Below are positions 9,262 to 37,815 of a stretch of DNA of 64,000 nucleotides, piece by piece. Within the stretch, counting starts at the first letter, position 1; each line of letters begins with the position of its first letter. The stretch covers positions 1 to 64,000 of the IMG/VR virus record IMGVR_UViG_3300049563_000052. One strand, given 5' to 3'. The notes beneath the pieces were generated by a model. That model was given only the letters and a program-made list of their open reading frames with translations. It was not told the DNA's origin and made no database searches. The position numbers and the translations under genes were made by a program. Source of the DNA: a virus (Duplodnaviria > Caudoviricetes).

Positions 9262-9555
9262 ATGGACACCTGGACGCCGCCCGCGGACGCGCTCCGCACC
9301 CACGCCGGAGACCTCAAGCACATCTGCAACGGCGACAACCCGGCCGGGCTGCCGTTCGGCAAGCTCGCCCCCGAAGGCACCTGCCCGCGCTGCGACGAGC
9401 GCCGCCACGGCGCCCCGCCCCGTCCCCGCTTCGGCGGCAGGCTCACCGCCGCCCAGCGCGACGCCCAGGCATGCGCCGACATCGCCGCGCACCACGCGTC
9501 CGCCCGGCACCGCTCCGGCGGCTGCGGCCTCGTCTGCACGTTCGGGGACTGGTGA
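9262..9555 (+). CDS. Cys/His-rich phage protein ending VCTFGDW
   Basis: CPRC, HxxxxRH..CTFGDW; RBS GGGAG. Confidence 0.65.
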   Translation: MDTWTPPADALRTHAGDLKHICNGDNPAGLPFGKLAPEGTCPRCDERRHGAPPRPRFGGRLTAAQRDAQACADIAAHHASARHRSGGCGLVCTFGDW

Positions 9556-10436
9556 GCATGAGCCACGACACCCTCGAAGCCGGGTTCGAGCCCACCGAGC
9601 TCGTCACCGCCATCCGCGCCAGCGCCGCCAAGCTCGACGCCCCGCCGACCCGCCGAGACATCACCGCGGACTGGTGGGACCGGCACCGCCCGACCCGGCG
9701 CGGCGTCGCGATCGGCTGCATCCTCGCGCTGCTCATCGTCATCGGGCTCGCCGCCGCCGCACTGTCCTTCGCGTCCATCGCCGGGCTCGCCATCCAATGC
9801 GGCATCCCGCCGGAGCTGGCCTGGCTGCTGCCCATCGTCATCGACGCCGGAGTCGTCGCGGGCACCATCGTGTGGCTGTCCCGGCGGCTGTTCCCCAACG
9901 AGGACGCGCGCCGCCTCGCCGCCGGGTACACGGTGAGCCTGCTCGTCGTGTCCATCGCCGCGAACGTCACCAACCACGTCCTCGCCGTCGAACATCTGTC
10001 CGCGTCCCTGTGGGTCATCATCCCGGTGTCCGCGATCGCGCCCGCGACCGTGTTCGTGATCGTGCACCTCGCGGTGACCGCGCTGCGCCCGGCGCGTCTC
10101 CCCGTCGCGGACCGCGGACACGAGGACAGTGCGAACACGGGAGCAGAGGACAGCGACACCCACGGGGACGCGGACGCGGACACGCACGAGAGGGACGCGG
10201 ACATGGGCGCCGACACGGACGCGGACGGCTACACCGCGCGGGTCCGCGCGGACGCCGCCGCCGCCGGGATCGAGCTGCCGCCCGCCCCGCCCGGCGAAAT
10301 CCGCAGCGACCGGCGCAAGCGACTCGCTCGCGAACGCAAGCGAGTCCAGCGCGCGATCGCCGCGCTCGACGCCACGCTCGTGGACGCCGCCCGCCGGGGC
10401 AGTCAGGCGCCGGACGACGTCCTCGCCGGGGGCTGA
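9552..10436 (+). CDS. DUF2637 / Spd-like plasmid-spread membrane protein
   Basis: Four TM segments; LSFASIAGLA..G..LAWLLPIVIDAG; SIAANVTNH. Confidence 0.7.
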   Translation: MSMSHDTLEAGFEPTELVTAIRASAAKLDAPPTRRDITADWWDRHRPTRRGVAIGCILALLIVIGLAAAALSFASIAGLAIQCGIPPELAWLLPIVIDAGVVAGTIVWLSRRLFPNEDARRLAAGYTVSLLVVSIAANVTNHVLAVEHLSASLWVIIPVSAIAPATVFVIVHLAVTALRPARLPVADRGHEDSANTGAEDSDTHGDADADTHERDADMGADTDADGYTARVRADAAAAGIELPPAPPGEIRSDRRKRLARERKRVQRAIAALDATLVDAARRGSQAPDDVLAGG

Positions 10437-10654
10437 TGGCCCGTCGCCGGTGGTCGGCCGTGCTCGTCGTGGCGGTCGGCATCGGCGGCTGGCTGCCCGC
10501 GGTGGTGCTCATCTGGCACTTCGCGCCGCCGCTGTGGGCGTGGCTGCTGGGCCACGCGAGCACGGTCTGTGTCGTGTTAGCCGTGCTCATGCTGGCCGTG
10601 GCCGCGTTCGGCTGGCCTACCTGCAAGAACCGGCGAAATCCCCCTATGCGGTGA
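10436..10654 (+). CDS. Small 2-TM membrane protein
   Basis: TGATG coupling; hydrophobic. Confidence 0.6.
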   Translation: MARRRWSAVLVVAVGIGGWLPAVVLIWHFAPPLWAWLLGHASTVCVVLAVLMLAVAAFGWPTCKNRRNPPMR

Positions 10655-10778
10655 CCGTGCGCACGGTCGGGTGACCGTCGGGGCCGTGCCGGGCAGGTCA
10701 GCCGGGGTGCACGGTCCGTCGCGGAGATCCACAGCTGCACGGTTGCACGGTCTGCCCGCACGGTCTCCTGACACGGTC
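10560..10778 (+). repeat. Seven direct 8-bp repeats GCACGGTC (candidate clt/TRS)
   Basis: Copies at 10560, 10661, 10709, 10737 (T at last base), 10745, 10758, 10771 (A at first base); one inverted copy at 10653. Confidence 0.7.
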
Positions 10779-10796
10779 CGTGCACCCCTCTCGCCA

Positions 10797-10815
10797 ATGC
10801 GCGCCAGGCGCGCGT
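10797..10815. promoter_or_regulatory. 19-bp palindrome variant running into TAGCGT
   Basis: atgcgcgcc a ggcgcgcgt. Confidence 0.75.
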
Positions 10816-10851
10816 AGCGTGGCGCTACCCACCACGAAGGGTCCCTCCGCC

Positions 10852-11727
10852 ATGGCTGTCATTGATCGCCCCCTGTCTGTCAATCCCGTCTTGACATCCG
10901 CGCCCCGACGAGCGCTGCCGCTGACACCGCTGCTACCGCTGGCCGAGGAGCTGTGGTGGATCGTGCGGTTCGCCGCGCTGCTGCTGTGGCTGACGTTGCG
11001 GTTCGGGTACCGGCAGGCGCGCCGGATCCCGGGGGCGGTGTTGCCGCCGCTGGGCGCGGTCGCGCTGTGCGGCTACATGGCGGTGCGCGCGGTGTCCGGG
11101 TATCTCGCGGACCCGCGTCCGCTCGTGGCCGTGTTCCTCGCGCCGGTGGTCGTGGTGGTCGGGTTCGCCCTGTTCTGCGCGTGGACATGCTCCGGGCTCG
11201 CCCCGGTCACCTACCGCGGTCCGCACGGCTCCATGACGGTGCGCCGCACCATCACCGGCAAGACGGAGCTGACCGCCCGCTACGTGAAGACCAAGCCCAA
11301 GCCGAAGCCCAAGAAGTTCTGCACCCCGAAGTCCACCGCCGTGCATGAGGGTGGACACGCCGCCGCCATCGAAGCGTGCGGGGGGACGATCGTGGGGGCC
11401 GCCGCCTTCTCCGACGGGTCCGGCTGGTGCAAGGGGCGGCTGCCGCGGATGGGCACGCTGCGGCACCGGGTCATCAACTACATGAGCGTCATGGTGGCCG
11501 GGGAGGTCGCGACCGGCTCCAAGTCCGGCTGCGGACACGATCAGTACTGGGCGACGTGGGCGGCGGAGAAGCTGCCCAAGAAGGACCGGTCGATGGCGTG
11601 GTCGCGGTGCTACTCGATGGCCCGCTGGGCGCAGTCCACGCACCGGGCGACGGCCGCCCGGGTTCGGGACGCGTTGCTGCGCACCGGCAGGTACCACGGG
11701 GCGGGCGGTTCGCAGCACTACCTGTGA
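10852..11727 (+). CDS. Membrane-anchored HExxH zinc metallopeptidase (M41/M50B-like)
   Basis: TAVHEGGHA, VAGEVA, GCGHD; N-terminal TM segments. Confidence 0.65.
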   Translation: MAVIDRPLSVNPVLTSAPRRALPLTPLLPLAEELWWIVRFAALLLWLTLRFGYRQARRIPGAVLPPLGAVALCGYMAVRAVSGYLADPRPLVAVFLAPVVVVVGFALFCAWTCSGLAPVTYRGPHGSMTVRRTITGKTELTARYVKTKPKPKPKKFCTPKSTAVHEGGHAAAIEACGGTIVGAAAFSDGSGWCKGRLPRMGTLRHRVINYMSVMVAGEVATGSKSGCGHDQYWATWAAEKLPKKDRSMAWSRCYSMARWAQSTHRATAARVRDALLRTGRYHGAGGSQHYL

Positions 11728-11734
11728 ACGGTGG

Positions 11735-11782
11735 GTGTTGGGTGCCCAACACTCCGTAGCCGTATGCGCGCCGGGCGCGCAC
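11735..11782. promoter_or_regulatory. GTGTTGGG-TG-CCCAACAC palindrome plus 19-bp palindrome
   Basis: 11735-11752 and 11764-11782; same pairing recurs at 12278-12337. Confidence 0.7.
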
Positions 11783-11792
11783 CGTAGGGGGC

Positions 11793-12053
11793 ATGACTGA
11801 CGCGCCCGCCGCCCCCACCAAGTACGCGCTGATCAAAGCGGAGACCCTCCGCGGCGAGCGCGTCTACACCGTGCTGATCAAGATGTCGGACGACTTCCGG
11901 CGCTGGCCCTACCGGGAGGACTACCGCCGGTACGCCACCCGCAAGGAGGCCGCCGCCGCCGCGGAGCTGACCGGGGCGGTGCTGCTGCGCCGGTGGTGTG
12001 ACGCGGTGCTGACCGCCGCGGAGTCCGCCGCGCAGTACGGCGGGCAGGCGTGA
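11793..12053 (+). CDS. Hypothetical protein, leaderless
   Basis: ATG follows the palindrome and a CACCGT box. Confidence 0.6.
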   Translation: MTDAPAAPTKYALIKAETLRGERVYTVLIKMSDDFRRWPYREDYRRYATRKEAAAAAELTGAVLLRRWCDAVLTAAESAAQYGGQA

Positions 12054-12274
12054 GCGTCACCGTCTTGGTCGCGGAGCTGCCGCGGCCGGTGCGCCGCGCG
12101 ACCATGCAGCTGATCGAGCGGGCCGTGATCATCGCCTACGCGGACGGCACGTTCCACGTCGCGGATCCGGCCGCCCGGCGCGGCTCCGACCGGATGGGCG
12201 CGAACGTGCCGGACATGCCCGCGCTGTGGGCGTGGTGCGTGCAGACGGCGCGGCTGAACGCCCGGTTGGAGTGA
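12050..12274 (+). CDS. Hypothetical protein
   Basis: GTGA coupling. Confidence 0.5.
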   Translation: MSVTVLVAELPRPVRRATMQLIERAVIIAYADGTFHVADPAARRGSDRMGANVPDMPALWAWCVQTARLNARLE

Positions 12275-12277
12275 CCG

Positions 12278-12340
12278 GTGTTGGGTGCGCAACATTCCAC
12301 CCCCTCAACCGTAGCTAGATGCGCGCCGGGCGCGCATACT
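12278..12340. promoter_or_regulatory. Second GTGTTG palindrome plus perfect 19-bp palindrome merged with CATACT
   Basis: gtgttgggtgcgcaacat; atgcgcgccgggcgcgcatact, then 6 nt to ATG. Confidence 0.8.
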
Positions 12341-12346
12341 AGGGAC

Positions 12347-12655
12347 ATGACCGACACCGCGCCCGCCGCCCCTCTCGCCGCCGTCCCCGCCCGCAAGCGC
12401 CCCGTGCGCATCCGCGAGGCCCGGGAGTACGGCGGCTTCGTGCGGCGCGCGATCCGCGGCCTGTCCGCCCGCGCCGAGCACGAAGACGCCGCCGCGGTGC
12501 TGTCCGAGCTCGTCACCGCGTCCACCGCGCTGGACGCCGCGCTGCGGGATGCCGTCGACCGGCTGCGCGCGCAGGGCTACAGCTGGGCCGAGATCGGCGC
12601 CCTGCTCAACACCTCCCGCCAGGGCGCGCAGCAGCGCTTCGGCCGGGCCCGCTGA
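12347..12655 (+). CDS. HTH DNA-binding protein
   Basis: LRAQGYSWAEIGALLNTSRQGAQQRFG. Confidence 0.8.
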   Translation: MTDTAPAAPLAAVPARKRPVRIREAREYGGFVRRAIRGLSARAEHEDAAAVLSELVTASTALDAALRDAVDRLRAQGYSWAEIGALLNTSRQGAQQRFGRAR

Positions 12656-12657
12656 CC

Positions 12658-12676
12658 GTGCGCGCCGGGCGCGCAG
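12658..12676. promoter_or_regulatory. 19-bp palindrome variant with TACCGT
   Basis: gtgcgcgcc g ggcgcgcag. Confidence 0.7.
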
Positions 12677-12711
12677 GTACCGTCACCCCCACCACGAAGG
12701 AGCACCAGAGC

Positions 12712-13026
12712 ATGAGCACCGCCACCACCGACGACATCCGCGCCGCGCGGCTGTTCGCCGACACGTACGCGCCCGAGCACGCCCGCCTGGTCGTCAGCCT
12801 GGTCCTGGACGGCTTCCACCCGTCGGAGTCGGAGCTGTGGCGGCGGGGCGAGCAGGGCTGGGCGGTGGTCGCGTTCGACGACCTGCACGTCTACGTCCGG
12901 GCGTACGAGTTCGCCCCGCGCGTCGGTCGGCGTCCCGGCGGCGGGCCCGGGAATCAGCAGTGGCAGGCCGTGTTCGTGCAGGCGCCCTTGCAGGTCGTGC
13001 GCGCCGCCGCCGCGGCGGTGAAGTGA
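12712..13026 (+). CDS. Hypothetical protein
   Basis: CCCACCACGAAGGAG leader. Confidence 0.65.
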   Translation: MSTATTDDIRAARLFADTYAPEHARLVVSLVLDGFHPSESELWRRGEQGWAVVAFDDLHVYVRAYEFAPRVGRRPGGGPGNQQWQAVFVQAPLQVVRAAAAAVK

Positions 13027-13340
13027 TGCCCCGCCGCGCCAAGCGCACTGTGCACTTCCGGGAGATCACCCGGTACCGCGACGTCGGCACGGTGTTGTAC
13101 GCCGTGGAGATCCGGCAGGGCCGCACGTCGTGGACGATCGGGCGCGTGTTCGGCGGGGGGCGCCACTGGGAGGGCCTGGCCGTGAACGGCGCGGCGTGGT
13201 CCCGGCGGCACCCCACCCGCATCGCCGCGACGTACGCGCTCGCCTACCACGAAGACTGGCGCGACGAAGAGACCTTTATCCGCTCGTGCGCCCCGGCCCT
13301 GTCTGGGGAACTGCTGCACGCCATCCACGGGGGGGAGTAG
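13026..13340 (+). CDS. Hypothetical protein
   Basis: TGATG coupling. Confidence 0.55.
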   Translation: MPRRAKRTVHFREITRYRDVGTVLYAVEIRQGRTSWTIGRVFGGGRHWEGLAVNGAAWSRRHPTRIAATYALAYHEDWRDEETFIRSCAPALSGELLHAIHGGE

Positions 13341-13345
13341 CACTG

Positions 13346-13570
13346 ATGGCCGACCGCAACCTCTTCAACCGGCGCGTTTTCGACCGCTACTCCGTGGGCG
13401 TCATCGACTTGTCCGAGACCGGCGACGGCTACCTGGAGATCACCGTCGATGAGCAGCCCAGCGGAATCGCCGCGGCGGTGGTCACGCTCCAGCTGTCCCG
13501 CCGCAAGGTGCGGGAGCTGCGGCTGGCGCTGGGCCACGTCGAGAAGCTGCTACCCGAGGAGATGACCTGA
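13346..13570 (+). CDS. Hypothetical protein
   Basis: GGGGAG RBS. Confidence 0.55.
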   Translation: MADRNLFNRRVFDRYSVGVIDLSETGDGYLEITVDEQPSGIAAAVVTLQLSRRKVRELRLALGHVEKLLPEEMT

Positions 13571-13571
13571 C

Positions 13572-13835
13572 ATGGCCTACCTGATGGCGTACGGGAAGTG
13601 CTTCGGCTGCGGGCGGATCTTCGGGTTCAACCCGGACCTCGTGCCCGCGCTGCGGGTGCGCTGGGTGCCCGACCCCGACGACCCGGACGGGGGCGGCGAC
13701 TGGGTCGACGACGCGGACGCGGACCCGCAGCCGCTCTGCGGGGTGTGCGTCACAGTGGCCAACCCGCAGCGCACCCGCAACGGGCTGGCCCCGATTCCCG
13801 TGCCGCCCGGCGCCTACGAGCCCGGGGAGGCGTGA
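13572..13835 (+). CDS. CxxC..CxxC Zn-binding protein (paralogue of 52063-52380)
   Basis: CFGC..F.FNP..VP..PLCGVC...AN..R. Confidence 0.6.
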   Translation: MAYLMAYGKCFGCGRIFGFNPDLVPALRVRWVPDPDDPDGGGDWVDDADADPQPLCGVCVTVANPQRTRNGLAPIPVPPGAYEPGEA

Positions 13836-14179
13836 TGCCCACCAAGCCGTCACCGTGGGACCGGCTGTACGCCGGGGACAAGTACGAGCCGGGCGCGACC
13901 GGGTGGATGGTCGGGCACACCGCCACGATGCCGTCCGGGCGGGTGTCTACCGCGTGGTGGTTCGGCCCGGCGCACGGGTGGGGCACCACCTACGGGGGGC
14001 TCGGCGAGCACACCGGCGCCCGCGTGTGGCGCACCAAGGCGCAGGCCGAAGCCGCGATCCGCCGCGTGTACCGCTCGCTGGCCCACGCGGAGGTCACCGG
14101 GCACCGGGCGATGCGCGTCGCGGACGCCGAAAGCCTCGCCCGCATACAGCAGCAGCAGCCGACGAAGGAGAGGCCGTGA
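13835..14179 (+). CDS. Hypothetical protein
   Basis: TGATG coupling, GGAGG RBS. Confidence 0.55.
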   Translation: MPTKPSPWDRLYAGDKYEPGATGWMVGHTATMPSGRVSTAWWFGPAHGWGTTYGGLGEHTGARVWRTKAQAEAAIRRVYRSLAHAEVTGHRAMRVADAESLARIQQQQPTKERP

Positions 14180-14388
14180 CCGTCCCCGACCCGCTGCCCC
14201 CGTTCAGCTCCCTACCCGGCAACAAGGTGACCCCGTCGCTGCTGGCGATGGCCGCGCTCCAGGTCTCCGACCTCGACCCGATGTACATGACCATGGGCGA
14301 CGAGCTGGCGTTGCAGATCGCCTACGAGTCGCTGCGCGCCCTGCTCAACCGGCACACCGCCACCCCACGCACCGGGGGGCCGCGATGA
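14176..14388 (+). CDS. Hypothetical protein
   Basis: AAGGAG RBS, GTGA coupling. Confidence 0.55.
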   Translation: MTVPDPLPPFSSLPGNKVTPSLLAMAALQVSDLDPMYMTMGDELALQIAYESLRALLNRHTATPRTGGPR

Positions 14389-14699
14389 GCAGCCCCCGGG
14401 TGCACGTCCTCAAGGTCGGCCCGCCGTATTTCGCCGCGGTCGACGAGGGCCGTAAGACGTTCGAGATCCGCCGCGACGACCGCGACTACCGCGTCGGCGA
14501 TCTGCTGCTGTTGAGCGAATACCTGGCCGACTGGGATGAGTACACCGGCCGCACCTGCGAGCGGCGCGTGACCTACGTGCTGCCCGGCGGCCAGTTCGGG
14601 TTGGCCGACGACTACGTCTGCATGGCGCTGGTCGCGGAGCCACCCCGCACGGCTGCCCGCGCGATGGTGGCGACCGCCCGCCGACCGGAGCCGTCATGA
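14385..14699 (+). CDS. ASCH/PUA-domain protein (DUF3850)
   Basis: HVLK..PPYF.AV.EG.KTFEIR.DDRDYRVGD.LLL.EY. Confidence 0.85.
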   Translation: MSSPRVHVLKVGPPYFAAVDEGRKTFEIRRDDRDYRVGDLLLLSEYLADWDEYTGRTCERRVTYVLPGGQFGLADDYVCMALVAEPPRTAARAMVATARRPEPS

Positions 14700-15022
14700 C
14701 CGCCCCGCCGCGCGCCGATGAGATCGCCGCCGCGCAGGTCGGGCGGGCGATGGGGCTGGCCGTGCTGTCCGGGCTGACCGGCGCGTTCGCCGCGCTCTCC
14801 GCCGTCGGCACCGTGCCGTGGTGGGCCTACCCGCTGGCGCTGTTCCTGGCCGCTTGGGCGGTGTGCTGCGTGATGATGTTCCGGGTGCTGCTGCCGATGA
14901 TGATCGCCGAGCTGCGCAAGCCGTACCGGCCCCGGATCAGCCGCCGCGCGTGCCGCTGCGCACACTTCGAGACCCCCCGACCCGATCACGAGCCGGGGCC
15001 CACCACGAGAACGGAACCCTGA
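14696..15022 (+). CDS. 2-TM membrane protein
   Basis: ATGA coupling; hydrophobic. Confidence 0.55.
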   Translation: MTAPPRADEIAAAQVGRAMGLAVLSGLTGAFAALSAVGTVPWWAYPLALFLAAWAVCCVMMFRVLLPMMIAELRKPYRPRISRRACRCAHFETPRPDHEPGPTTRTEP

Positions 15023-15399
15023 TGCTGACGTCGATCACCATCCGGGGGGAGCAGGTCCGCCCCCCCGACCCCACGCGGCGGCCGGGGCCGCCGCCCAGCG
15101 ACAGCCTGGGCGCGCCCACCGATGCCGCGATGCGCCGCGCCACGGAGTACGCCTACCAGCTGGCGATGGCGCTGGACAACCAGCTGTGGGTCATCGAGTA
15201 CCTGGCCGCCGGGCGGCTGTGCGACGCCGACCTGGGCCACGGTTACAGCGCCCGCGCCGACCACGTCCGCAGTGACGCGCGGGACCTCCACCTCACCACC
15301 GGGCATCTCCGCGACGCCCTGCGGCGGCTCGACAAGGCGGCCGGGGCCCGCACCCGCTGGGGGCTGCCCGCCTCCGGCCGCCCGGCGGTGACCCGATGA
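15022..15399 (+). CDS. Hypothetical protein
   Basis: TGATG coupling. Confidence 0.5.
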   Translation: MLTSITIRGEQVRPPDPTRRPGPPPSDSLGAPTDAAMRRATEYAYQLAMALDNQLWVIEYLAAGRLCDADLGHGYSARADHVRSDARDLHLTTGHLRDALRRLDKAAGARTRWGLPASGRPAVTR

Positions 15400-15698
15400 C
15401 CGGGCCCCGGAAGCGGCGCCCCTGCGCGTGTGACCGGTTCGCCGACTTCGGCTGCGGGGAGATGATCCCCGACAACCAGAACTGGGCGCCCGGCCACGCC
15501 GAGCGCATGTTGGGGCGGCTGGTCGATCTGCTCCGGGCGGCCGGGGACACCCCGTCCGTGGCGGTGTGGGTCAACCCGATCACCGCCCTGGACTTGGTGA
15601 GCCCGCGCATGGCTGCGCAATTACGCGCAGAGTTCACCGGCGGCCCGGCCGCGGGTGCGCAGCTGCGCGCACTCCCCGGCGAGGAGGCGACGGGGTGA
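15396..15698 (+). CDS. Hypothetical protein
   Basis: ATGA coupling; C.C..GCG..WAPGH. Confidence 0.55.
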   Translation: MTGPRKRRPCACDRFADFGCGEMIPDNQNWAPGHAERMLGRLVDLLRAAGDTPSVAVWVNPITALDLVSPRMAAQLRAEFTGGPAAGAQLRALPGEEATG

Positions 15699-15940
15699 AG
15701 ACCATCGCCCGCTCGTCCACCCGGAAGATCGCCGCGATCATGAAGCGGAACCCGACCTGCGAGATGTTCAGCCTGCGGAACAACTTCACACCGCAGGATG
15801 TCGACCCGGCCTGGGCGTGGGGGGAGCTGGACCGGTTCGACTTCGCCCGGCTCATCGAGATCGACGACAACACGTGGCAGATCACCGTGCACAGCAACCT
15901 CTGGTACAAGCTGCGCGCCGCACCCCGGGCGCCGGGGTGA
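15695..15940 (+). CDS. Hypothetical protein
   Basis: GGAGG RBS, GTGA coupling. Confidence 0.55.
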   Translation: MKTIARSSTRKIAAIMKRNPTCEMFSLRNNFTPQDVDPAWAWGELDRFDFARLIEIDDNTWQITVHSNLWYKLRAAPRAPG

Positions 15941-16098
15941 CCCGGCTCGTCGTCCTCGGCGTCGCCGGGATGCTCGCCCTGTGGCTGGCCGGCGTGATCG
16001 GGGGGACGGCGCCGTCGGCGATGACCGCGGCGATCGCCCTCGGCGCCGTGTCGGGGCTCAGCCTCGGCGCCGCCATCGACCATCGGCGACACCGGTGA
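15937..16098 (+). CDS. Small 2-TM protein
   Basis: GTGA coupling; hydrophobic. Confidence 0.5.
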   Translation: MTRLVVLGVAGMLALWLAGVIGGTAPSAMTAAIALGAVSGLSLGAAIDHRRHR

Positions 16099-16370
16099 GT
16101 AGGCGCCCGCAGCTGTGGACCGAACGGTGCCCGACGTGCGTGTTCTGGCCGGGGAACCGGATGCGGCTGGCCCCCGGCAGGCTCGCCGACCTGATCGCCA
16201 CCAACCGCGCCACCGGCTCGCTGCTCATCTGCCACGACACCACCCACGGCGCCCGCCCGGAGGGCCCGGTGATGTGCCGCGGCTACTGGGACGCCTACGC
16301 CGAAGAGTCCGCGGTCGCGCAGATCATGGAGCAGCTGTTCGGGCCGGACTGGTACGAGGAGGTTTCGTGA
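16095..16370 (+). CDS. Cys/His metal-binding phage protein
   Basis: CPTCVF..ICHDT..MCRGY. Confidence 0.6.
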   Translation: MSRRPQLWTERCPTCVFWPGNRMRLAPGRLADLIATNRATGSLLICHDTTHGARPEGPVMCRGYWDAYAEESAVAQIMEQLFGPDWYEEVS

Positions 16371-17008
16371 TCCCGAAATGGCTGTGGCGGACCGCGCCGG
16401 GCGTGCGGCGGCTGCTGCGACCGGCCGACCCCGCCATCCGCGAGATCGCCCGGTTCCTGGTCGCCCCGGATCCGCGCATCCACGCCCTGTCCCTGGAGCG
16501 GGACGCGGCGGATAAGCGGCGGGCGCAGTTGGAGCGCCGCGCCGGGGCGGCGGAGCGCCGCGCCAAGGCCGCCGAGGACGCCTTGGCGGCCGGGTCGGCC
16601 CCGGCCCCGGCGCTGCGCGCGGCGGCCCAAGAGATCCGGGGGCTGAAAGCGGCGCTGCGCGGGCTGCGCGCCGACGTCAAACAGGCGTACGAGCCGGTCG
16701 AGGTGGGCAGCTGCCGCAAGGTCCGCTATCTGCACGCCGAGGACGCCCGACGGCACGCCGCGCACGTGGCGTCCCGGTTCCCCGGCGACGTGTTCAACAT
16801 CTACCGGTGCCGGGTGTGCCCCCGCTACGTGTCGCCGTGGAACGTGCCGCCCTGGCACGTCGGGCACACCGTCTCCGACGACACGCCCGGGGCGACCTGG
16901 GTAGACGAGGACGGGCTGCTGCACCAGCCCGGTCTGCCCGCGGGGCCGCCCGTCGCGGACCCGGCCCCGCGCCGCGACCTGGAGTTGCGGGCATGGTTAC
17001 GCCGATGA
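16367..17008 (+). CDS. Coiled-coil plus Zn-finger-like phage protein
   Basis: CRKVRY..YRCRVC..WHVGH. Confidence 0.6.
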   Translation: MIPKWLWRTAPGVRRLLRPADPAIREIARFLVAPDPRIHALSLERDAADKRRAQLERRAGAAERRAKAAEDALAAGSAPAPALRAAAQEIRGLKAALRGLRADVKQAYEPVEVGSCRKVRYLHAEDARRHAAHVASRFPGDVFNIYRCRVCPRYVSPWNVPPWHVGHTVSDDTPGATWVDEDGLLHQPGLPAGPPVADPAPRRDLELRAWLRR

Positions 17009-17256
17009 GACCCGGACAGCACAGCCCACCGTCCCGCCCGATGCCGCCGCCGACCTGGACCCCGCCACCCCCACCGCCCCCGGCGCTGCCGCAATGGCTG
17101 TGCTGCATCTGCGCGGCGATCGTCGGGGGGCGGGCGGTCCCGGCCCGCTGCCTCGTCGGCGGGGACACGGTGTGCCTGGATCACCTCATCCTGCGGGCCG
17201 AATCAGCGTCGCTGAGCGAGGCCCTCGCGACCGCCCGCGCCGACCTGGCCCCCTGA
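17005..17256 (+). CDS. Hypothetical Pro-rich/Cys protein
   Basis: ATGA coupling; CCIC..CLDH. Confidence 0.45.
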   Translation: MRPGQHSPPSRPMPPPTWTPPPPPPPALPQWLCCICAAIVGGRAVPARCLVGGDTVCLDHLILRAESASLSEALATARADLAP

Positions 17257-17412
17257 CCCGCAACCGCCCGGCCGCTGTCAAGACGGGGTTGACACCCCAC
17301 CCGGGGCCCGAGGTGTGAGCGCCCACAAAACAGCCCCGGGCGGGGCGCACGGGGACGAGCCTCGTGCCCCACGCGCGGGACCCGCCCCCGATGGGGCACG
17401 GTAGAGCCGAGA

Positions 17413-19707
17413 TCATCCGCCTCGGCGGAGGCGCGCCATCGCCGCCCGCAGGTCCACCACCTGGTAGCCGCGGCCCCGCCCACCGGACCAGCTGCGCGGA
17501 TCCGTGGCCCGCAACCCCTCGCAGTGCGCGGCGATGGCCCGGCCCAGCGCCTCCACATGCCTGCGCGCTGTCGACCCCCACACCTGTTCGCACAGCAGCG
17601 CGGTGGCCACCCACTCGACATCCGCGGGGATCGCGTCGACCGCCCGCGCCACGGACGGCATCGGCTCCGGCAGCTTGACCGCCGTGGCCACCGCGGGCGC
17701 CGCCTCCTCGAGAACCGGTGCCCCGGCCGGGGTGTCGGCGGTGCGCATCGCGTCGGCTTCGGTCTGCATGCGCTGCGCGAGGGTTTCCAGCCGGGTCAGG
17801 TCCTCGTTGGTGGGCATGCCGATCGAGCCGGCCCCCTCCGGCGGCTCTGACGGCTCCCACCCGCCACCGGTCGGTGGCGGCTGCTGCGGCGGCGGCTGCT
17901 GCGGTGCCTTGTTCATGTTGATCCCTTCGGTCGTCTGTGCGGGCGGGGGCTGCCCACCCGGGGGGGCGGGTCGCCACTCCCAGCCGCGCTTGCGGCAGGC
18001 CCGCGCCAGGGTCGGCACCCGCTCCGGGTGCCAGCGCAGCTCGTAGTCCGCCCCGAGCGCCTCCAGGTCGGACTCCGACCACTGCGCGGGCGGCATCGCC
18101 GCGATCTGCCGCACCACCTGATCGATCAGCACCGTCCCGTCCAGGTGCGCCACCTTGCCCGGCATGGGGCGGGCGTCGTCGGCCATGGATGGCTGGATGT
18201 AGACGGTGTGATCCCGCAGCTTGGTCGAGTCGACGCCCATGCCGTCCAGCTTCGGCATGGTGAACGTGCCGTCCGCGTAGGTTTCGGTGGCGGTGCAGAT
18301 GCGGATGGTGAAGTTGCGCATCATCTCGTCCCCGGACGGGCCGAGCCCGTCATAGAGCCCCTGCTGGGTGAACGCCCAACACGAGATCCCGGAGGACCGC
18401 ACACCTTCCAGCAGCGCCGAGAACAGGCGGCTGATGGTGTAGTCCACACCCTCGATCGTCTGCGTTTGTGGGCGCCTGCCGCCGTCGTTGCCCTCATCCC
18501 ACAGGATCAGCAGACCGGGCCGTTCCGGGCCGATGGTCACCTTGGACTCGTCGTCGAGCTCGGCGTTGCGGGAGCGGCCCAACCGGTAGGCCGCGTGCAG
18601 CATGCGCAGGCACTCGGCGGGATCCTCCCCGGCCACCCAATCGATGATCGGGTACTCGTCGCGGCCGGAGAAGTAGCCGGTCAGCCACGGCCACACCAGC
18701 GGGTTGAGCTTGTTCGTCGACATGATCCATACGTGGCTTTCGCGGCGGCCTGAGGACGCCGCCGACGCCGCCGCCCGGATGATGTTGTTGGCGACCACGC
18801 CCTTCCCGGCGCCGCTCGCGCCGACGCACTTCCCGTGTCGGGCGGCCAGGCTGATCTCGATCGGGTCGCCGTCGAGGAACAGGCCCAGCCAGGCGGGCAT
18901 CCGCCATGGCCGGGGGGCGGGCGCATCGGTCAGCGGCACATCCTGGCGCTCGACGTGCGTGGTGTTGACGTGCAGGTACCACCGGTCCACCTTGAGCGGC
19001 TCGGGGCGGATGTCGTTGTCTTCGAACTGGATGCCGCGCTTGCGCCAGTGCACCGCGAGCTGCTGGGTCAACCGCGGCAAGAACTGGGTGAAGTCGAGGA
19101 AGTCGGTGAGCGCTTCGAGCGGCTGCCCTTCGGCGTCGAGCAGCTTCGGCCCGAACGTCCAGGTCTGCCCGGCCCGGGTCTTCTTCATCTCCAACACGTC
19201 GACGGCGCCCATCCCGGACTTGTCGAGCATGCGCCGCATCATCTCGATCTCATCGGCGGGCAGCGGTATCTGCGCGACGGTCTTGATCTGACCGCGGGGG
19301 GCGATCACGTTGTCCAGCGTCCACCACAGCACCGCGAGCAGCCCGCCGCCCAACAGCAGCAGCGGGGTCTGCGCCCACACCGACGTCGACGCGGCCAGCC
19401 ACAACCAGGCTGCGGTCGCGACGCCGATGAGCAGGCCGAGGATGCGCCCGGCCAGCGGCACCCACTCCACGTGTTCGCCGTAACCCCAGATCTGCCCGGC
19501 GCGCAGCATGAGCACCAAGCCCAGCACGCACCCGGCCAGCGCGACCAGGATCGGGGGGAAACCGGCGCCTTCGTGCGCGGCCCACTGCGGCAGCCATCCC
19601 ATGCACCAAATCCAGATGCCGAGGATGGTCGGTACCGCCCACACCCGAGACGGAGCCCAGGGCGGCTCCGGCTCGGGTTCGGGCTTCTTCGCGGTGGTGT
19701 CGGGCAT
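17413..19707 (-). CDS. traB: FtsK/SpoIIIE-family conjugal DNA translocase (TraB-like)
   Basis: About four N-terminal TM segments; Walker A GASGAGKG; Walker B LILWDEG; WAFTQ; small C-terminal wHTH-like domain. Confidence 0.75.
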   Translation of the reverse strand: MPDTTAKKPEPEPEPPWAPSRVWAVPTILGIWIWCMGWLPQWAAHEGAGFPPILVALAGCVLGLVLMLRAGQIWGYGEHVEWVPLAGRILGLLIGVATAAWLWLAASTSVWAQTPLLLLGGGLLAVLWWTLDNVIAPRGQIKTVAQIPLPADEIEMMRRMLDKSGMGAVDVLEMKKTRAGQTWTFGPKLLDAEGQPLEALTDFLDFTQFLPRLTQQLAVHWRKRGIQFEDNDIRPEPLKVDRWYLHVNTTHVERQDVPLTDAPAPRPWRMPAWLGLFLDGDPIEISLAARHGKCVGASGAGKGVVANNIIRAAASAASSGRRESHVWIMSTNKLNPLVWPWLTGYFSGRDEYPIIDWVAGEDPAECLRMLHAAYRLGRSRNAELDDESKVTIGPERPGLLILWDEGNDGGRRPQTQTIEGVDYTISRLFSALLEGVRSSGISCWAFTQQGLYDGLGPSGDEMMRNFTIRICTATETYADGTFTMPKLDGMGVDSTKLRDHTVYIQPSMADDARPMPGKVAHLDGTVLIDQVVRQIAAMPPAQWSESDLEALGADYELRWHPERVPTLARACRKRGWEWRPAPPGGQPPPAQTTEGINMNKAPQQPPPQQPPPTGGGWEPSEPPEGAGSIGMPTNEDLTRLETLAQRMQTEADAMRTADTPAGAPVLEEAAPAVATAVKLPEPMPSVARAVDAIPADVEWVATALLCEQVWGSTARRHVEALGRAIAAHCEGLRATDPRSWSGGRGRGYQVVDLRAAMARLRRGG

Positions 19708-19723
19708 GTGATCCGTGCTCGCT

Positions 19724-20122
19724 TTACCAGTCGGCGCCTTGGTGGATCTTGACGTCCCAGGCGATGTCCTGCTGCCGGGCCCGCACGATCCGCTCGATGC
19801 GATCCATCACGGCCTGCTTGGCGGCCTGCATCGCGGTGCGCAGCGCACTGGCCTGCCGCTGCTGCTGGTTGCCCAGCTCCCCGAAGAACTGCGCTGTCGA
19901 CGGGGGCAGGTCCACCATCTGCACGCTCTTGGCGCCGAGGTGCTTGTAGAACTGCGCGACCTGCAACTGGAGATCCGGCAGCCAGTCCATGACGGCCACA
20001 CACTGCATGGCCAACTCGGGGTTGTACTGCCGCTCGGCGTTCTTGAGCGCGTCGCTGATCTGCGTGTACCAACCCGGGGGCTTGGTGTGCTTCCGGGTGC
20101 CGTTCGCGGTGCCGACTGGCAT
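19724..20122 (-). CDS. Nested in-frame 132-aa product (TraA-like)
   Basis: CCCACCACGCAAGGAGG-7nt-ATG internal start. Confidence 0.6.
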   Translation of the reverse strand: MPVGTANGTRKHTKPPGWYTQISDALKNAERQYNPELAMQCVAVMDWLPDLQLQVAQFYKHLGAKSVQMVDLPPSTAQFFGELGNQQQRQASALRTAMQAAKQAVMDRIERIVRARQQDIAWDVKIHQGADW

Positions 20123-22753
20123 GGCGGTTCCTCCTTGCGTGGTGGGGGTCTTGCGGGTACTGGTGCGGCCGGGACCGACCCGGGCCGCGGGGGTGCGTCC
20201 GGCGGCCAGCCGCGCGGGCCGGGACCGCCGTCCACCCGCCGGTGCGTGCGGCGGGATGTGGTGGGGCAGCGGGGCGGGCAGGTTCCGCAGCGGCAGCCGG
20301 CGGATCGGCCACCACGACAGCAGCCGCGCGAACCGCATGCCCAACATGCGCCGGGTGTGCCGCCGCGCCCAGCGCAGCCCCCACCGCCCGGCCCGCCGCA
20401 GCGGGCGGACCATCGCCCGCCGGGTCCGCAGGGTGTGCGCGCGGAGCCGGGCATGCCGGGTGGGGACCAGCGCCGGTCCGCGGACCGGCCGCCCGCGGAC
20501 GGTGCTGCGCAGCTGCCCGCCGATGCGGCCCCGGGTCAGCCGGGCCAACGGGCTGCGACCGGTTACCAGCCGCCCCGATTGGGTACGGTGTCGCCGCAGC
20601 GCCGTACTGGTACCGGCGCTTGGCCGCGTCGGCCGCCTAGACCCCGCGGCGACGGCGCGGCCCCATAACGTCCGCACCCGCCCCGGCTGCCGGGCGGCGC
20701 GGTGCCTGCCGGTCGCATGTGCGGGGGGGCGGGCGGTGACGGGCCTGCTGCGGCGGGCCGGGGCGGCGTGCAACCACCGACCGAACGCGCCCCGCCGGGC
20801 GGCGGCGCGGGTCCCGGCGAGCGTGCGCCAACCGGTCCTACCCGGTCCACCACTGCGGCCACCGCCACCGCCCCGACGGGTCCCGCCGCGGGATCGGCCA
20901 GCTGCCGTCGTCCCGCCCCGGGCCCAGCGGCCGAATCGGCCGGTCTGCGTCCCGGCCCACCGGCCGCGGCCGTGACCGGTGCGGGGTCCCGCGAACGTCC
21001 GGGGGCGGGTTCGGGTCCCCGTCCCGGTACGCCGCCCCGTGCCGGTGCTGGTCCGCCATCTACCCGTCCCCGTTCCGGTGCGTCCCGTCCCGGTACTGGT
21101 GCCGCGCGGCATCGCCCGGGTCCGGCTGCCCAGCCCGCCGACCCGGCGGCTGCCCCGGTTCGACGCCCAGCCGGGCCCGCCGCCGATCCCGGCGAGCCGC
21201 CTCCCGAACTGTCCACGCCCACGCGCCGACCGTGTACCCGAGCGCGTCCCGCCGCCGCCGCGTCCGCCACGCGATCCGGGCGATGTCGAACTGCCCCGCC
21301 CGCGTGCACCTCCGGCACGGCCCCACAGCCGCGACCAGGGACTCCCGCCGTTCCTCGTCCCGCTCCGTCCACCCGAGCTGCGCCGCCCGCTGCCAGGGGG
21401 CCGGAGTCCCCACCGGGTGCTCCGCCCACTCGTCCCAGTACCCCGGGTCCGGCCGCCACCGCTCCCACCGCGTCCCCGCGATGTCCGTCCCGGACCGCTC
21501 GTGCCCCGTCCCCGGCCGCTCGTGCCCCGGGATCCACCGCTCGTGCGTGGGGTGCTGCGGGTGCGGGTGCCCGGCCCACCGACCCGGCGGGAACCCCGGC
21601 CGCTCGCCCATCCCGGGCCGGTCCCGCCGAACAGCTTGCCGAACCGTCCCGACCTGCCGGACGATCCGCGCCCCCGACCGCCCGCACCGCGGGCACCGGA
21701 GCCCGAGCCCCGACGGCCCGACGTCGTCGTGCCCCGGGTCGAACCGCGTCCCGTCAGGCCACCGAACAGCCCGCCGCGTCCGCTGCGCCCACCGGCGCCG
21801 GAGCCACGTCCACTCCGCCCGCCCGCGCGTCCGGCAGCCGTGCCACGTCCACTCCGGCCGCCGCCGCCGAACAGGCCACCGAGCCGGCCGCGGCTCCCGC
21901 CACGCCCACTGCTCGATCCGCCCAGCCCACTGCGCCCGCGGCCACCGCCGCGCGAGCCACCCCGGCCACTGCCGCCGAGCAGCCCGCCGAGCAGCCCCTT
22001 GCCACCGCTGCTGCCACCGCTGCCGCGTCCACTGCGCCCGCCGCCGCCGAGCAGCCCCTTGCCACCGCTGCCGCGTCCACTGCGCCCGCTGCGGCCACCG
22101 CCGAGGCTGCCACCGCGTGACCCGCCGAGCCCACCCCGCCGCGAGCCAGGCCGGGAGCTGAGCCCAGCCCCGCGCCCACCAGACGAACCGCGTCCGCTGC
22201 GTCCGGATCCCAGCCGTGACCCGAGCCCCGACCTGCGTCCGCCACTCGTGGAACGGCGGGTACCACCACCACTCCCACCGCCACGGCGGGAGCCAGAGGT
22301 GAGCCGCGAGCCGAGTCGTCTCGGCCCCGAGCTGGGCGACGTCCCGGACCGTGTCCCGGGACGGGACCGTCCAGCGCCGCCACCACCACGGCCGGGCATG
22401 GTCCAGGCCGTACGGGTGACGGTGCGGCGCTGCGGCCACTTGATCGTCCACGTGCGCCTCCGAGCTCGCGCGGGCCGCTTGGCGTCGGCTCGGACACGGG
22501 CCCGGTGCACCAGGTAGAGCAGCCAGGCGATCAGCAGCAGGATCCCGACGATCAACGCCCCGACCCAGCCGAGGGTAGCGGCGGCGACGATCTCAATCGC
22601 GGCAACGACCGGCGTGGCGAGCATGAGCCGGGAGGTGGTGGCGGCACGCTGCCGCTTGGCGACCTCGGCGCGTTGCGCGGCCTCCGGGTTCCCGGCCAAC
22701 CGCTGACGGCTGCCCGCCCGGGAGGGGGTGACGGGCCGCATGGTGGTGTTCAC
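19724..22753 (-). CDS. 1009-aa protein: N-terminal TM pair, Gly/Arg/Ser low-complexity region, helical C-terminal transfer-associated domain
   Basis: GTGA coupling at 22753; open for 3 kb; C-terminal YNPE.AM..IAWDV. Confidence 0.6.
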   Translation of the reverse strand: MNTTMRPVTPSRAGSRQRLAGNPEAAQRAEVAKRQRAATTSRLMLATPVVAAIEIVAAATLGWVGALIVGILLLIAWLLYLVHRARVRADAKRPARARRRTWTIKWPQRRTVTRTAWTMPGRGGGGAGRSRPGTRSGTSPSSGPRRLGSRLTSGSRRGGGSGGGTRRSTSGGRRSGLGSRLGSGRSGRGSSGGRGAGLSSRPGSRRGGLGGSRGGSLGGGRSGRSGRGSGGKGLLGGGGRSGRGSGGSSGGKGLLGGLLGGSGRGGSRGGGRGRSGLGGSSSGRGGSRGRLGGLFGGGGRSGRGTAAGRAGGRSGRGSGAGGRSGRGGLFGGLTGRGSTRGTTTSGRRGSGSGARGAGGRGRGSSGRSGRFGKLFGGTGPGWASGRGSRRVGGPGTRTRSTPRTSGGSRGTSGRGRGTSGPGRTSRGRGGSGGGRTRGTGTSGRSTRWGLRPPGSGRRSSGGRSGTRNGGSPWSRLWGRAGGARGRGSSTSPGSRGGRGGGGTRSGTRSARGRGQFGRRLAGIGGGPGWASNRGSRRVGGLGSRTRAMPRGTSTGTGRTGTGTGRWRTSTGTGRRTGTGTRTRPRTFAGPRTGHGRGRWAGTQTGRFGRWARGGTTAAGRSRGGTRRGGGGGRSGGPGRTGWRTLAGTRAAARRGAFGRWLHAAPARRSRPVTARPPAHATGRHRAARQPGRVRTLWGRAVAAGSRRPTRPSAGTSTALRRHRTQSGRLVTGRSPLARLTRGRIGGQLRSTVRGRPVRGPALVPTRHARLRAHTLRTRRAMVRPLRRAGRWGLRWARRHTRRMLGMRFARLLSWWPIRRLPLRNLPAPLPHHIPPHAPAGGRRSRPARLAAGRTPAARVGPGRTSTRKTPTTQGGTAMPVGTANGTRKHTKPPGWYTQISDALKNAERQYNPELAMQCVAVMDWLPDLQLQVAQFYKHLGAKSVQMVDLPPSTAQFFGELGNQQQRQASALRTAMQAAKQAVMDRIERIVRARQQDIAWDVKIHQGADW

Positions 22754-22989
22754 AGCCACGGCAAGGTCACCCCCGCAGCGTTGGACTGCACGTGCATCAA
22801 GCTGGTGATGGCGGTGTCCGCCACCTGCCACACCCGCGCCGCGGCGGAGGTCATGAACGACAGCGACGCCGCCGCCAGCCCGAAGAGAATGACCTTCCAG
22901 CGGGCGTCGATGTCGCCCTTGAGCACGTACCAGAGCACGACCAGCGACGCGTACACGCCGAGGCTGATGGTGATCGTCGAGGTGGACAT
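22750..22989 (-). CDS. Small 2-TM Spd-like protein
   Basis: Hydrophobic; coupled to the transfer operon. Confidence 0.55.
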   Translation of the reverse strand: MSTSTITISLGVYASLVVLWYVLKGDIDARWKVILFGLAAASLSFMTSAAARVWQVADTAITSLMHVQSNAAGVTLPWL

Positions 22990-22997
22990 GGGGGGGA

Positions 22998-23213
22998 TCA
23001 GCCCCCCGGGCGTGTCGCGTTGATACGACGCCACACCGTGGCGCGATGGACCCCATAGGCGGCGGCTACCGCCGCGGGGGAGAGGCCACGATGATGCACC
23101 AGCTCGGCCATCACGGCCTCCACTTGGAGACGTTCAGCGCCGACGCGTCGCAGCCAGGCGACGAGCTCGTCGTCGGTAGCGGTGTTCGGGTCCAAGGGAT
23201 GGTCCGTCCACAC
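22998..23213 (-). CDS. HTH regulator heading the transfer operon (Kor/TraR-like role)
   Basis: RGLSPAAVAAAYGVHRATVWRRI; CCCACCACGAAGCAGGAGG leader. Confidence 0.7.
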   Translation of the reverse strand: MWTDHPLDPNTATDDELVAWLRRVGAERLQVEAVMAELVHHRGLSPAAVAAAYGVHRATVWRRINATRPGG

Positions 23214-23300
23214 ATGGATGTGCCTCCTGCTTCGTGGTGGGCCCGCGTCGCGTTTCGCAACGACGAGTCGGGTTACTGTACCGACTCGGGCCGTCACCGG

Positions 23301-23993
23301 ATGCGTCGCGGGCGCGCTTCCCCCCGATCGGCGGCGCTGATCTCCTACGGGATCTTGGCGGTCCTGGCCCTGATCACCGGGTTGGGGGTGTCCGCGCTGG
23401 TCGGGCCGCTGCCCGCGTTCGACTGGTCGCGGGCGGCGATGCACGTGCTGCTGCACGGTCCAGTGGTGCAGGTGATCCCCACACCGCCCGTTACGGTGAT
23501 CGCGGCACCGCCGGGAACCCCGGCGGTGGTGGCACCGGAGCAGCCCCGGTCCCCGTCGCTGGGGAGCGAGTCGGGGGGTGCGCGTGCGCACGGTCGTCAC
23601 GCGCCGCCGAGTCGGGCCGGGGTCGCTGACTCGGCGGCGCCCACTGAGGCGTCGGTGTCGCCGGAGCCGGCGTCGGGTCCGGTGCCGCAGCTGGTCGCGG
23701 CGGAACCTTCCGAGGCGGAACCGTCGGATAACGGCGCGCCGCCTTCGGCCGAACAGCCCAGCAGAGTTACCGTCACGCCCGGCGCGCCGACCGCGACCGC
23801 AGCACCGACCCCCGCGGCCGACGCCTCACCGGACGACACCGACAGCACCACGGCGGACCCCACGCCGGAACCGACAGCCACCACAGCGGGGGGGCGGCAT
23901 GGACGAGGTCACGCAGCGGACCCGGGCGGCGATGCTGGGCAAGCTGACCAGCGCGACACCGAGCAACGCGCACGGCCAACCCCCACCCCGTGA
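23301..23993 (+). CDS. Membrane-anchored Pro/Ala/Thr-rich protein
   Basis: Single TM then low-complexity stalk; TACTGT inside the inverted repeat gagtcgg/ccgactc upstream. Confidence 0.5.
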   Translation: MRRGRASPRSAALISYGILAVLALITGLGVSALVGPLPAFDWSRAAMHVLLHGPVVQVIPTPPVTVIAAPPGTPAVVAPEQPRSPSLGSESGGARAHGRHAPPSRAGVADSAAPTEASVSPEPASGPVPQLVAAEPSEAEPSDNGAPPSAEQPSRVTVTPGAPTATAAPTPAADASPDDTDSTTADPTPEPTATTAGGRHGRGHAADPGGDAGQADQRDTEQRARPTPTP

Positions 23994-24197: not shown

Positions 24198-24248
24198 CGT
24201 GTCGGGTTGTCCACCACGAAACGGACCGACCCGACAAGGAGTTCTGCC

Positions 24249-24494
24249 ATGGACTGGCGTCACCGCGCGCTCTGCCGCGACGAGGACCCGGAGCTGTTCT
24301 TCCCGGTGGGGACCTCCGGCCCCGCGCTGCTTCAGATCGCCGAGGCGAAGACGGTTTGTCGTCGTTGCCCCGTTGTGTCCGAGTGCCTTACGTGGGCGCT
24401 GGAGACGGGGCAGGATGCCGGGGTATGGGGGGGCATGAGCGAGGACGAGCGCCGTGCCCTCAAGCGCCGCAATACCCGGACGCGGGCCGCGTGA
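24249..24494 (+). CDS. whiB1: WhiB1/WblE Fe-S transcription factor
   Basis: MDWRHRALCRDEDPELFFPVG..CRRC..C..GVWGGMSEDERRALKRR; AAGGAG RBS. Confidence 0.92.
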   Translation: MDWRHRALCRDEDPELFFPVGTSGPALLQIAEAKTVCRRCPVVSECLTWALETGQDAGVWGGMSEDERRALKRRNTRTRAA

Positions 24495-37199: not shown

Positions 37200-37257
37200 C
37201 TATCCTCAGCACCATGATCAGTAGCAAGCCATGGTGTTGTCACTGTTGTCGCTGACC

Positions 37258-37810: not shown

Positions 37811-37815
37811 TGCCG

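Follow-up and report, generated by a model that had tools for sequence, protein, structure and literature searches.

In the conjugative plasmid pSVH1, TraB is needed for transfer and Spd proteins for intramycelial spread, and together TraB and Spd move plasmids between and within mycelia (PMC4447253). The closest described element that joins transfer to a virion is pZL12: the title of Zhong et al. 2010 (J Bacteriol 192:3747) names its replication, its transfer, and its plasmid/lytic phage cycle (PMC4487206), and a conjugal transfer locus and a lytic phage cycle are given as previously shown for it in passages of two sources (PMC4487206, PMC3583192). Papers on phages treat FtsK-like genes only in passing (PMC13587820, PMC11536984). 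Here we analyze the window, the first 64 kb (64,000 nucleotides) of the single 97,019-bp contig of virus record IMGVR_UViG_3300049563_000052 (72% G+C, linear, and estimated to be 91% complete), in which a leftward unit at 23.27-17.41 kb, lying between two rightward gene blocks, encodes in order a small helix-turn-helix (HTH) protein, a protein with two transmembrane (TM) segments, a giant Gly/Arg-rich protein, and a TraB/FtsK-like membrane ATPase. The ATPase is homologous to the transfer proteins of Streptomyces plasmids and to a protein of pZL12, has a predicted domain architecture like that of the former, and is paired with a conserved upstream partner. We give an even chance to the reading that this operon is a phage-borne version of the actinomycete double-stranded DNA (dsDNA) transfer module exemplified by Streptomyces plasmid Tra and the tra genes of pZL12.

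Six homologues of the ATPase are present in an index of 5.8 billion proteins, and a profile search of 1.84 billion proteins returned 330 representatives, from which we conclude, on our own reading and with the family not directly counted, that there is no spill-over into chromosomal FtsK; the ten family members that were looked up are metagenome proteins. Among phages, tblastn with the ATPase recovers PIS_041 of Saccharomonospora phage PIS136 (29% identity, E 5e-30), which is its closest named relative (hhalign E 3e-48), together with a protein of the 'Microcystis' phage Mwe-JY05. The direct tblastn search against plasmids gave no match, and the plasmid link is reached only through PIS_041 as an intermediate; used as a query, PIS_041 leads to actinomycete plasmids, including an 89.7-kb plasmid of S. 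anulatus in which the match sits among GntR, NUDIX, and kilB genes, near a terminase gene. The window alignment and the protein of this S. anulatus phage-plasmid can be aligned by hhalign over 491 columns, TM region included (99.1% probability, E 1.6e-18), and the S. anulatus protein leads on to gene 71 of phage ZL12/pZL12, with which the window ATPase aligns at hhalign E 3e-5.

A family profile built from 57 full-length members (E-values at Z = 1e6) recovers PIS136 (810 bits), Mwe-JY05 (593 bits), pAmyja1 (281 bits), the S. anulatus plasmid (172 bits), pSQ10 (103 bits), an S. flavofungini plasmid (81 bits), Hiyaa (75 bits), Wofford (72 bits), pZL12 gene 71 (65 bits, E 2e-16), and pADI95-16c (58 bits), and it reaches pJV1 TraB (34.6 bits, E 3e-7) and pIJ101 Tra (27.6 bits, E 4e-5); the score of E. 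coli FtsK is not significant (11 bits, E 4.3). In the comparison with TraB and FtsK that the initial annotation had proposed, the ATPase is grouped by this profile with the plasmid transfer translocases and not with chromosomal FtsK. A tree of the ATPase core built by maximum likelihood, which we take as consistency only because of its long branches and single FtsK outgroup, agrees with this, and places the window, PIS136, Mwe-JY05, and metagenome sequences in one clade (99% support in the Shimodaira-Hasegawa-like approximate likelihood ratio test).

The giant frame immediately upstream of the ATPase gene encodes a partner protein consisting of a TM anchor, a low-complexity tract of about 700 aa rich in Gly, Arg, Ser, and Thr, and a C-terminal helical domain. 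A hidden Markov model (HMM) of the C-terminal domain, built from the window and four metagenomic relatives, was searched against 1567 six-frame open reading frames (ORFs) from all fetched loci, and it matches solely ORFs lying immediately upstream of an ATPase gene, in eight other elements: Mwe-JY05 (E 1.7e-13), the 10.5-kb plasmid pADI95-16c (E 4e-12), the S. anulatus plasmid (E 4.7e-12), pZL12 gene 72 (E 3.4e-9), Hiyaa gp101 (E 3.7e-6), the S. flavofungini plasmid (E 7.7e-6), pAmyja1 (E 2.6e-4), and the small plasmid pSQ10 (E 1.6e-3). The same search found no copy in pIJ101, pJV1, Wofford, PIS136, or the loci L008 and L009, and the partner domain is thus a point on which pIJ101 and pJV1 differ from the window. 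All copies of the domain end in a W-D-[VIL] motif. Since the domain is matched only beside the ATPase, partner and ATPase constitute a conserved two-gene core, common to small plasmids, ~90-kb phage-plasmids, and tailed phages. The Streptomyces-plasmid-type ATPase module recognized by the initial annotation is borne out by this pairing, as pZL12, a plasmid-phage, and small plasmids of actinomycetes alike keep the upstream partner together with the ATPase.

The likeness to pZL12/ZL12 (NC_013420, genes 71-73) extends to the whole element, which is also ~90 kb, forms virions, and has an FtsK-like tra gene. Gene 71 is homologous to the window ATPase, and gene 72, as well as a 680-aa protein of the S. 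anulatus plasmid, has the same succession of TM anchor, low-complexity tract, and C-terminal domain as the window partner, with the W-D motif and detectable homology; the tract is Gly/Ser/Lys-rich in pZL12 and Gly/Arg-rich in the window. Absent from the window genome but present in pZL12 are an upstream GntR regulator, ParA, and an integrase-family gene, and the two ATPases fall in different clades. Streptomyces phage Hiyaa resembles the window in having a free-standing partner, gp101, directly upstream of gp102, with a DUF2637-like protein, gp98, encoded nearby. Hiyaa gp102 and PIS_041 are phage proteins of PHROG 31069, a family of FtsK-like phage proteins for which the window ATPase scores below threshold. 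The window module appears, from these sequence relationships, to be a divergent variant of the known pZL12/plasmid-type core.

The initial annotation had considered the union of phage and transfer module to be rare. Related FtsK-like translocases are present in 99 phage records, 96 of them of Streptomyces phages, and PHROG 31069 exists for them; with pZL12 as a precedent dating from 2010, the combination is therefore not rare. We note that two ~90-kb circular 'plasmids', that of S. anulatus (NZ_CP108377.1) and pAmyja1 of Amycolatopsis japonica (NZ_CP008954.1), resemble pZL12-type phage-plasmids and carry phage genes next to the transfer module; the first has a terminase, and the second a GH25 lysin and a LamG tail-like protein. 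The record of Mwe-JY05 (PP395638.1) has matches to ParA and integrase, and its fetched 15-kb locus carries the ATPase-plus-partner module and RecET-like genes. At 74% G+C, this locus makes the cyanobacterial host label doubtful, and we discarded the 'Microcystis phage' label as a sign of a non-actinomycete host.

Some of the plasmids that carry the two-gene core are only 10-18 kb long and have little room past replication and transfer, which argues against a use of the pump inside the cell. One form of such a use would be at septa, sporulation or vegetative, that are about to close: the pump would clear or segregate the DNA of the phage or plasmid-prophage through them, much as FtsK and SpoIIIE handle chromosomes, whereby spores would inherit the phage without ParA. 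Another would be superinfection exclusion, with incoming DNA expelled or blocked. Several observations would suit it: the clade of the window ATPase, which includes phage members, is separate and well supported; the phage encodes a Rep and neither ParA nor integrase; FtsK-like genes are found in 133-kb Streptomyces phages such as Wofford, in which the gene directly upstream is annotated as a nucleotidyltransferase and the HMM finds no partner in the locus; and the phage literature links FtsK-like genes loosely to development or replication (PMC13587820, PMC11536984). There is no experimental support for any phage copy acting in this way, and we judge the two intracellular variants, taken together, to be unlikely.

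The predicted structure of the ATPase is of moderate quality (AlphaFold, mean predicted local distance difference test score [pLDDT] 60, core 63-88). Its N-terminal helices span residues 19-46, 52-74, 82-107, and 114-144, three segments of which pass the hydropathy cut-off, and a single Walker A/B pair (GASGAGKG and LLILWDE) lies in one P-loop domain. Residues 683-763 (pLDDT 83-92) follow a helix-strand-helix-helix-strand-strand order that predicts a winged helix; Pfam gives no HTH match for this segment. N-terminal TM helices, a single FtsK-like P-loop domain, and a C-terminal winged helix, predicted here, are also the architecture of TraB and Tra of pSVH1, pJV1, and pIJ101, from which the window protein differs in its very low sequence similarity and in its Walker A. 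Chromosomal FtsK and SpoIIIE share with it the membrane anchor and a C-terminal DNA-reading winged helix (again as predicted here), and the FtsK motor 6t8g is the first Foldseek match (E 7e-7), followed by the pCW3 coupling protein TcpA, then EccC/EssC and HerA; the differences from chromosomal FtsK are that the E. coli protein lies outside the family profile, that PF01580 is barely matched, and that the repeat motif identified here has no genome-wide excess resembling that of the FtsK-orienting polar sequences (KOPS).

EccC and EssC contain degenerate ATPase domains, and EccC has three P-loop domains. Their place among the Foldseek matches, the degenerate Walker A of the window ATPase, and a ~130-aa partner whose model consists of long helices and which bears a conserved motif only a few residues short of its C-terminal end might together point to a type-VII-like export unit, with the ATPase recognizing the C-terminal tail of a small helical-hairpin protein as EccC does with EsxB. 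We regard this as highly improbable, as the ATPase model has one P-loop domain against three in EccC, lacks tandem ATPase domains, and has the predicted winged helix at its C-terminus; FtsK and TcpA outrank EccC, and two DNA translocases of plasmids, TraB and Tra, come within reach of the family HMM. The partner, moreover, is often fused to a TM anchor and so ill-suited to be a secreted substrate, and its domain model (three helices, two of them long, pLDDT 65) has no significant Foldseek match to WXG100 or any other fold in the PDB, only generic helical hairpins.

The initial annotation had also described a giant Gly/Arg-rich protein with a nested C-terminal product, and three lines of evidence uphold it. 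The giant frame has no stop codons over 20548-22750, against four in each other minus-strand frame and ~6.6 expected by our own estimate from base composition. The putative internal start is preceded by a Shine-Dalgarno (SD) sequence, AAGGAGGA, 6 nt 5' of the ATG at 20122, and the same SD and ATG are present in two metagenomic relatives (L005 and L007), in which gene callers predict a free protein of 128-130 aa. Finally, the C-terminal domain exists as a free-standing gene of 115-130 aa in L010, as Hiyaa gp101, and in the database relatives P0171 and P0172. With SD and ATG conserved and free-standing copies elsewhere, the nested product is well founded. The giant protein itself has no usable family match in Pfam, PHROGs, NCBIfam, or the PDB.

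Two features of the module could be taken as signs of decay. In the window ATPase and its two nearest relatives, Walker A reads GKG, with Gly at the Mg-binding Ser/Thr position, and the L007 version of the giant ORF is distributed among three frames. A passenger acquired from a plasmid and now inactive or decaying might show both, and would be expected to lack the Kor, Nudix, and Spd context, which is missing here. We nonetheless consider a passenger improbable. The ATPase is full-length, with a third-codon-position G+C (GC3) of 0.92, and 120 columns are invariant across seven homologues down to 39% identity; in the family alignment, the Walker B hhhh[DE]E, glutamate included, and the TQ motif are invariant. 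GKG recurs in the separate lineages of Mwe-JY05, P0053, and P0056. Conservation extends to the SD and ATG of the nested product, the operon's first gene shows a third-position substitution bias, and the frame breaks of L007, falling where a metagenome assembly is GC-rich and of low complexity, may be assembly errors.

A number of observations weigh against the operon being a dsDNA transfer module. The ATPase falls under every threshold in Pfam, PHROG, NCBIfam, and PDB sequence searches, and PF01580 (FtsK_SpoIIIE) aligns with its Walker A only, at 10.4 bits against a cut-off of 24; this family is a weak discriminator, because pJV1 TraB fails it as well (18.3 bits). With a GKG Walker A, ATPase activity may be weak or lost. 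In the tree, the window clade adjoins the clade of plasmids and phage-plasmids but is separate from it, and its function may have shifted, to judge from this placement. The phage genome, at 91% completeness, has no match to GntR or NUDIX, nor Pfam matches to tyrosine integrase, large serine recombinase, ParA (AAA_31), or ParB_N; with these lacking, a persistent donor state is not established. The 3' end of the ATPase gene (17.0-17.6 kb) is without a repeat array, and the array described below could equally be an operator or an iteron. Lastly, pZL12 genes 71-73 are presumed from their annotation to be its tra genes, traA-C. The search for replication and integration genes suggested by the initial annotation was successful in its first part, as a Rep initiator, which speaks for the transfer reading, is encoded outside the window (phrog_8064, E 1e-38), and not in its second, integrase being without a match. 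Relatives that bear the module mostly have integrase and/or ParA; Hiyaa has neither.

Table 1. Features of the window and the remaining genome; positions are those of the window unless marked, and genes were called by third-position G+C.
Feature	Position	Strand	Details
DUF2637 multi-TM protein, 294 aa	9552-10436	+	about four TM stretches; PF10935 E 6e-10 (passes cut-off); phrog_733
Nine copies of 8-bp motif GCACGGTC	10653-10783		five exact, four with one mismatch, both orientations; 131 bp non-coding; k-mer cluster scan and motif searches
Probable unlisted small gene, ~87 aa	~16995-17256	+	Pro-rich, Cys pairs; convergent to ATPase gene
Terminator-like hairpin with T-run	17333-17346	-	67 nt past ATPase stop codon
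TraB/FtsK-like membrane ATPase, 764 aa	17413-19707	-	GC3 0.92; TM helices, one P-loop domain, disordered Pro-rich linker, C-terminal predicted winged helix
Nested product, 132 aa	19724-20122	-	C-terminal helical domain alone; internal SD and ATG
Partner protein, ~1005 aa	19724-22741	-	likely start ATG 22741; start overlaps end of 2-TM gene
Giant ORF	19724-23056	-	open for 1110 codons; 23% Gly, 19% Arg
Small 2-TM membrane protein, <=94 aa	22750-23034	-	GC3 0.96; two hydrophobic segments
Small HTH protein, ~80-90 aa	22998-23267 (start approximate)	-	first gene of operon; HTH_23 E 2e-5; phrog_664
Divergent gene	23301-23993 (start ~23300-23400)	+	one TM segment, Pro/Thr/Ala-rich tail
WhiB-family regulator	24207-24494	+	Pfam E 4e-28
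Four tandem copies of GAAGGGCAA	28291-28336		between small genes
Bacterial-like globin	30369-30758	-	Pfam E 1e-18
Five copies of 9-13-bp repeat, core GGCGTGTATCTCC	36828-37057		in ~1-kb gene-free gap 36827-37810
Putative DNA-modification block	37810-42392		ParB-N-like protein (phrog_620), Tet/JBP-type oxygenase, M15 peptidase, QueC-like protein
Terminase large subunit	43221-44783		phrog_9, E 5e-58
Portal, S78 protease, HK97-type capsid	45-49.4 kb
1600-aa ORF in tape-measure position	54341-59143
Animal-haem-peroxidase-like gene	genome 95627-97015 (L002:15627-17015)		E 1e-14

All the operon parts listed by the initial annotation exist, with some boundaries corrected (Table 1): the HTH gene is shortened and the start of the giant ORF moved. 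No sigma-70 promoter was found in a scan of the operon region. The HTH protein is 60% identical to its L007 copy, and in the alignment of the window with L007, third-codon-position substitutions in the HTH frame are confined to ~22970-23240; to the right of ~23240 it is a divergent plus-strand ORF whose third positions collect them. This switch in bias shows that the HTH gene and the divergent gene are both real and that the HTH protein has ~80-90 aa, the maximal HTH ORF of 200 codons (22998-23600) being too long by the same measure. The 2-TM protein is 42% identical to its L007 copy (E 7e-14) and has no family match in Pfam, PHROG, NCBIfam, or PDB searches. The divergent gene is also conserved in L007, and no family match was found for it. 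A whiB gene lies ~1 kb from the operon, and one is present ~2 kb from the FtsK-like gene of PIS136. On the other side, the probable small gene convergent to the ATPase gene cuts an apparent gap of 404 bp to ~156 bp.

The initial annotation had added to the transfer kit a DUF2637 gene with four TM segments, along with Spd proteins and a Kor/TraR repressor. The DUF2637 gene exists and its product has about four TM segments, but no protein identifiable as Spd was found by hhalign against pIJ101 SpdB and pJV1 orf666. The gene lies 7 kb from the operon, on the opposite strand and in a separate transcription unit. Genes of the DUF2637 type are located beside the module in the S. flavofungini plasmid, where one is annotated so, in PIS136 (PIS_045), and in Hiyaa (gp98), and a role in the transfer system is unproven. 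The protein was tried as a homologue of SpdB or of pZL12 gene 73 and rejected, there being nothing against either at the sensitivity available; its alignment with the pJV1 spread-region protein orf666 is weak (hhalign E 7e-4, 27% probability). The 2-TM gene is likewise without detectable relation to gene 73, which, unlike the window DUF2637 gene, is adjacent to its module. A Kor/TraR repressor is not borne out, the genome being without a GntR match, and the regulator of the operon is the small HTH_23-type protein.

Streptomyces conjugative plasmids carry short direct-repeat arrays, and an array is also found in the window, 6.6 kb from the ATPase gene. The nine GCACGGTC copies, which include a 16-bp palindrome (10653-10668), lie just past the DUF2637 gene and a small TM gene, and no other cluster of short repeats in the genome's left part is as strong; at the window-wide rate ~0.03 exact copies would be expected in the 131-bp span. 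The motif is not enriched elsewhere in the window and has no KOPS-like genome-wide excess. The array fits the clt logic of TraB systems and is a candidate clt, and equally a candidate operator or iteron. Arrays accompany related genes elsewhere: immediately past the ATPase gene, L009 has nine repeats with a TGCCAC core and L008 a comparable array, and in PIS136 GGAACCA recurs more than ten times next to the DUF2637-type gene. Two other repeat clusters were noted in the window: the GGCGTGTATCTCC repeats upstream of the ParB-N-like gene, which could be an iteron or operator array, and the tandem GAAGGGCAA copies.

That the genome encodes a virion, as the initial annotation had held, is correct, given a virion module of terminase, portal, protease, capsid, and tape-measure-position ORF together with a lysis block; this tailed-phage block occupies the right half of the window and also includes tail lysins and a GH25 lysin. 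The phage is tailed, with high-GC soil actinomycetes as its hosts. Its terminase shares no more than 37% identity with any terminase from other actinophages. No close phage relative was found by megablast of 48 kb of the window against 50,697 phage records, nor were relatives of the locus found in viral or genome contig collections; a scan of metagenomes for related loci gave eight short ones. RecE/RecT-like genes lie 3' of the window. The globin and the animal-haem-peroxidase-like gene are unusual cargo for a phage. The block that looks devoted to DNA modification contains the one ParB-N-like PHROG match of the genome, and its Tet/JBP-type oxygenase is under the Pfam cut-off.

If the operon is a transfer module, the 764-aa protein would be anchored in the membrane by its N-terminal helices and form an FtsK-like ring, with its C-terminal winged helix binding phage DNA at short repeats, for which the GCACGGTC array at 10.65-10.78 kb would be the best candidate. 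The pump would drive phage dsDNA, unprocessed and from either the replicating or the plasmid state, through a septal cross-wall or into another hypha in contact with the first. The TM-anchored Gly/Arg-rich protein and the free 132-aa domain would be obligate partners of the pump, as scaffold or regulator, and the Arg/Gly tract may hold DNA or cell wall; the 2-TM protein would presumably be an accessory membrane part, and the small HTH protein a local regulator. For the window phage, we infer the pumping of DNA, its substrate, and its spread from cell to cell, hypha to hypha included, from homology and gene pairing. A more general proposal, that tailed actinophages broadly use a TraB-like pump and a helical partner for virion-free passage of their genomes between compartments and hyphae, we put forward as tentative and rather doubtful; such a second route, independent of receptors, would cover both the window phage and Hiyaa, which lack integrase and ParA, and would escape entry defenses.

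The proposal of a plasmid-type dsDNA-transfer core in a virion-forming phage is thus partly supported, having been right in kind and overstated with regard to Kor, Spd, and rarity. Many unexplained 'FtsK-like translocase' genes of actinophages are now linked to the transfer locus known from pZL12 and from small plasmids of actinomycetes, a conserved partner gene is defined alongside the ATPase, and short repeat arrays are pointed to as candidate recognition sites. If the module is active, this would be a virus of mycelial bacteria with two routes of spread, one by particle and the other by naked dsDNA pumped through the hyphal network, and the interpretation of plaque spread, host range, receptor-based resistance, and gene flow in Streptomyces soils would change accordingly.

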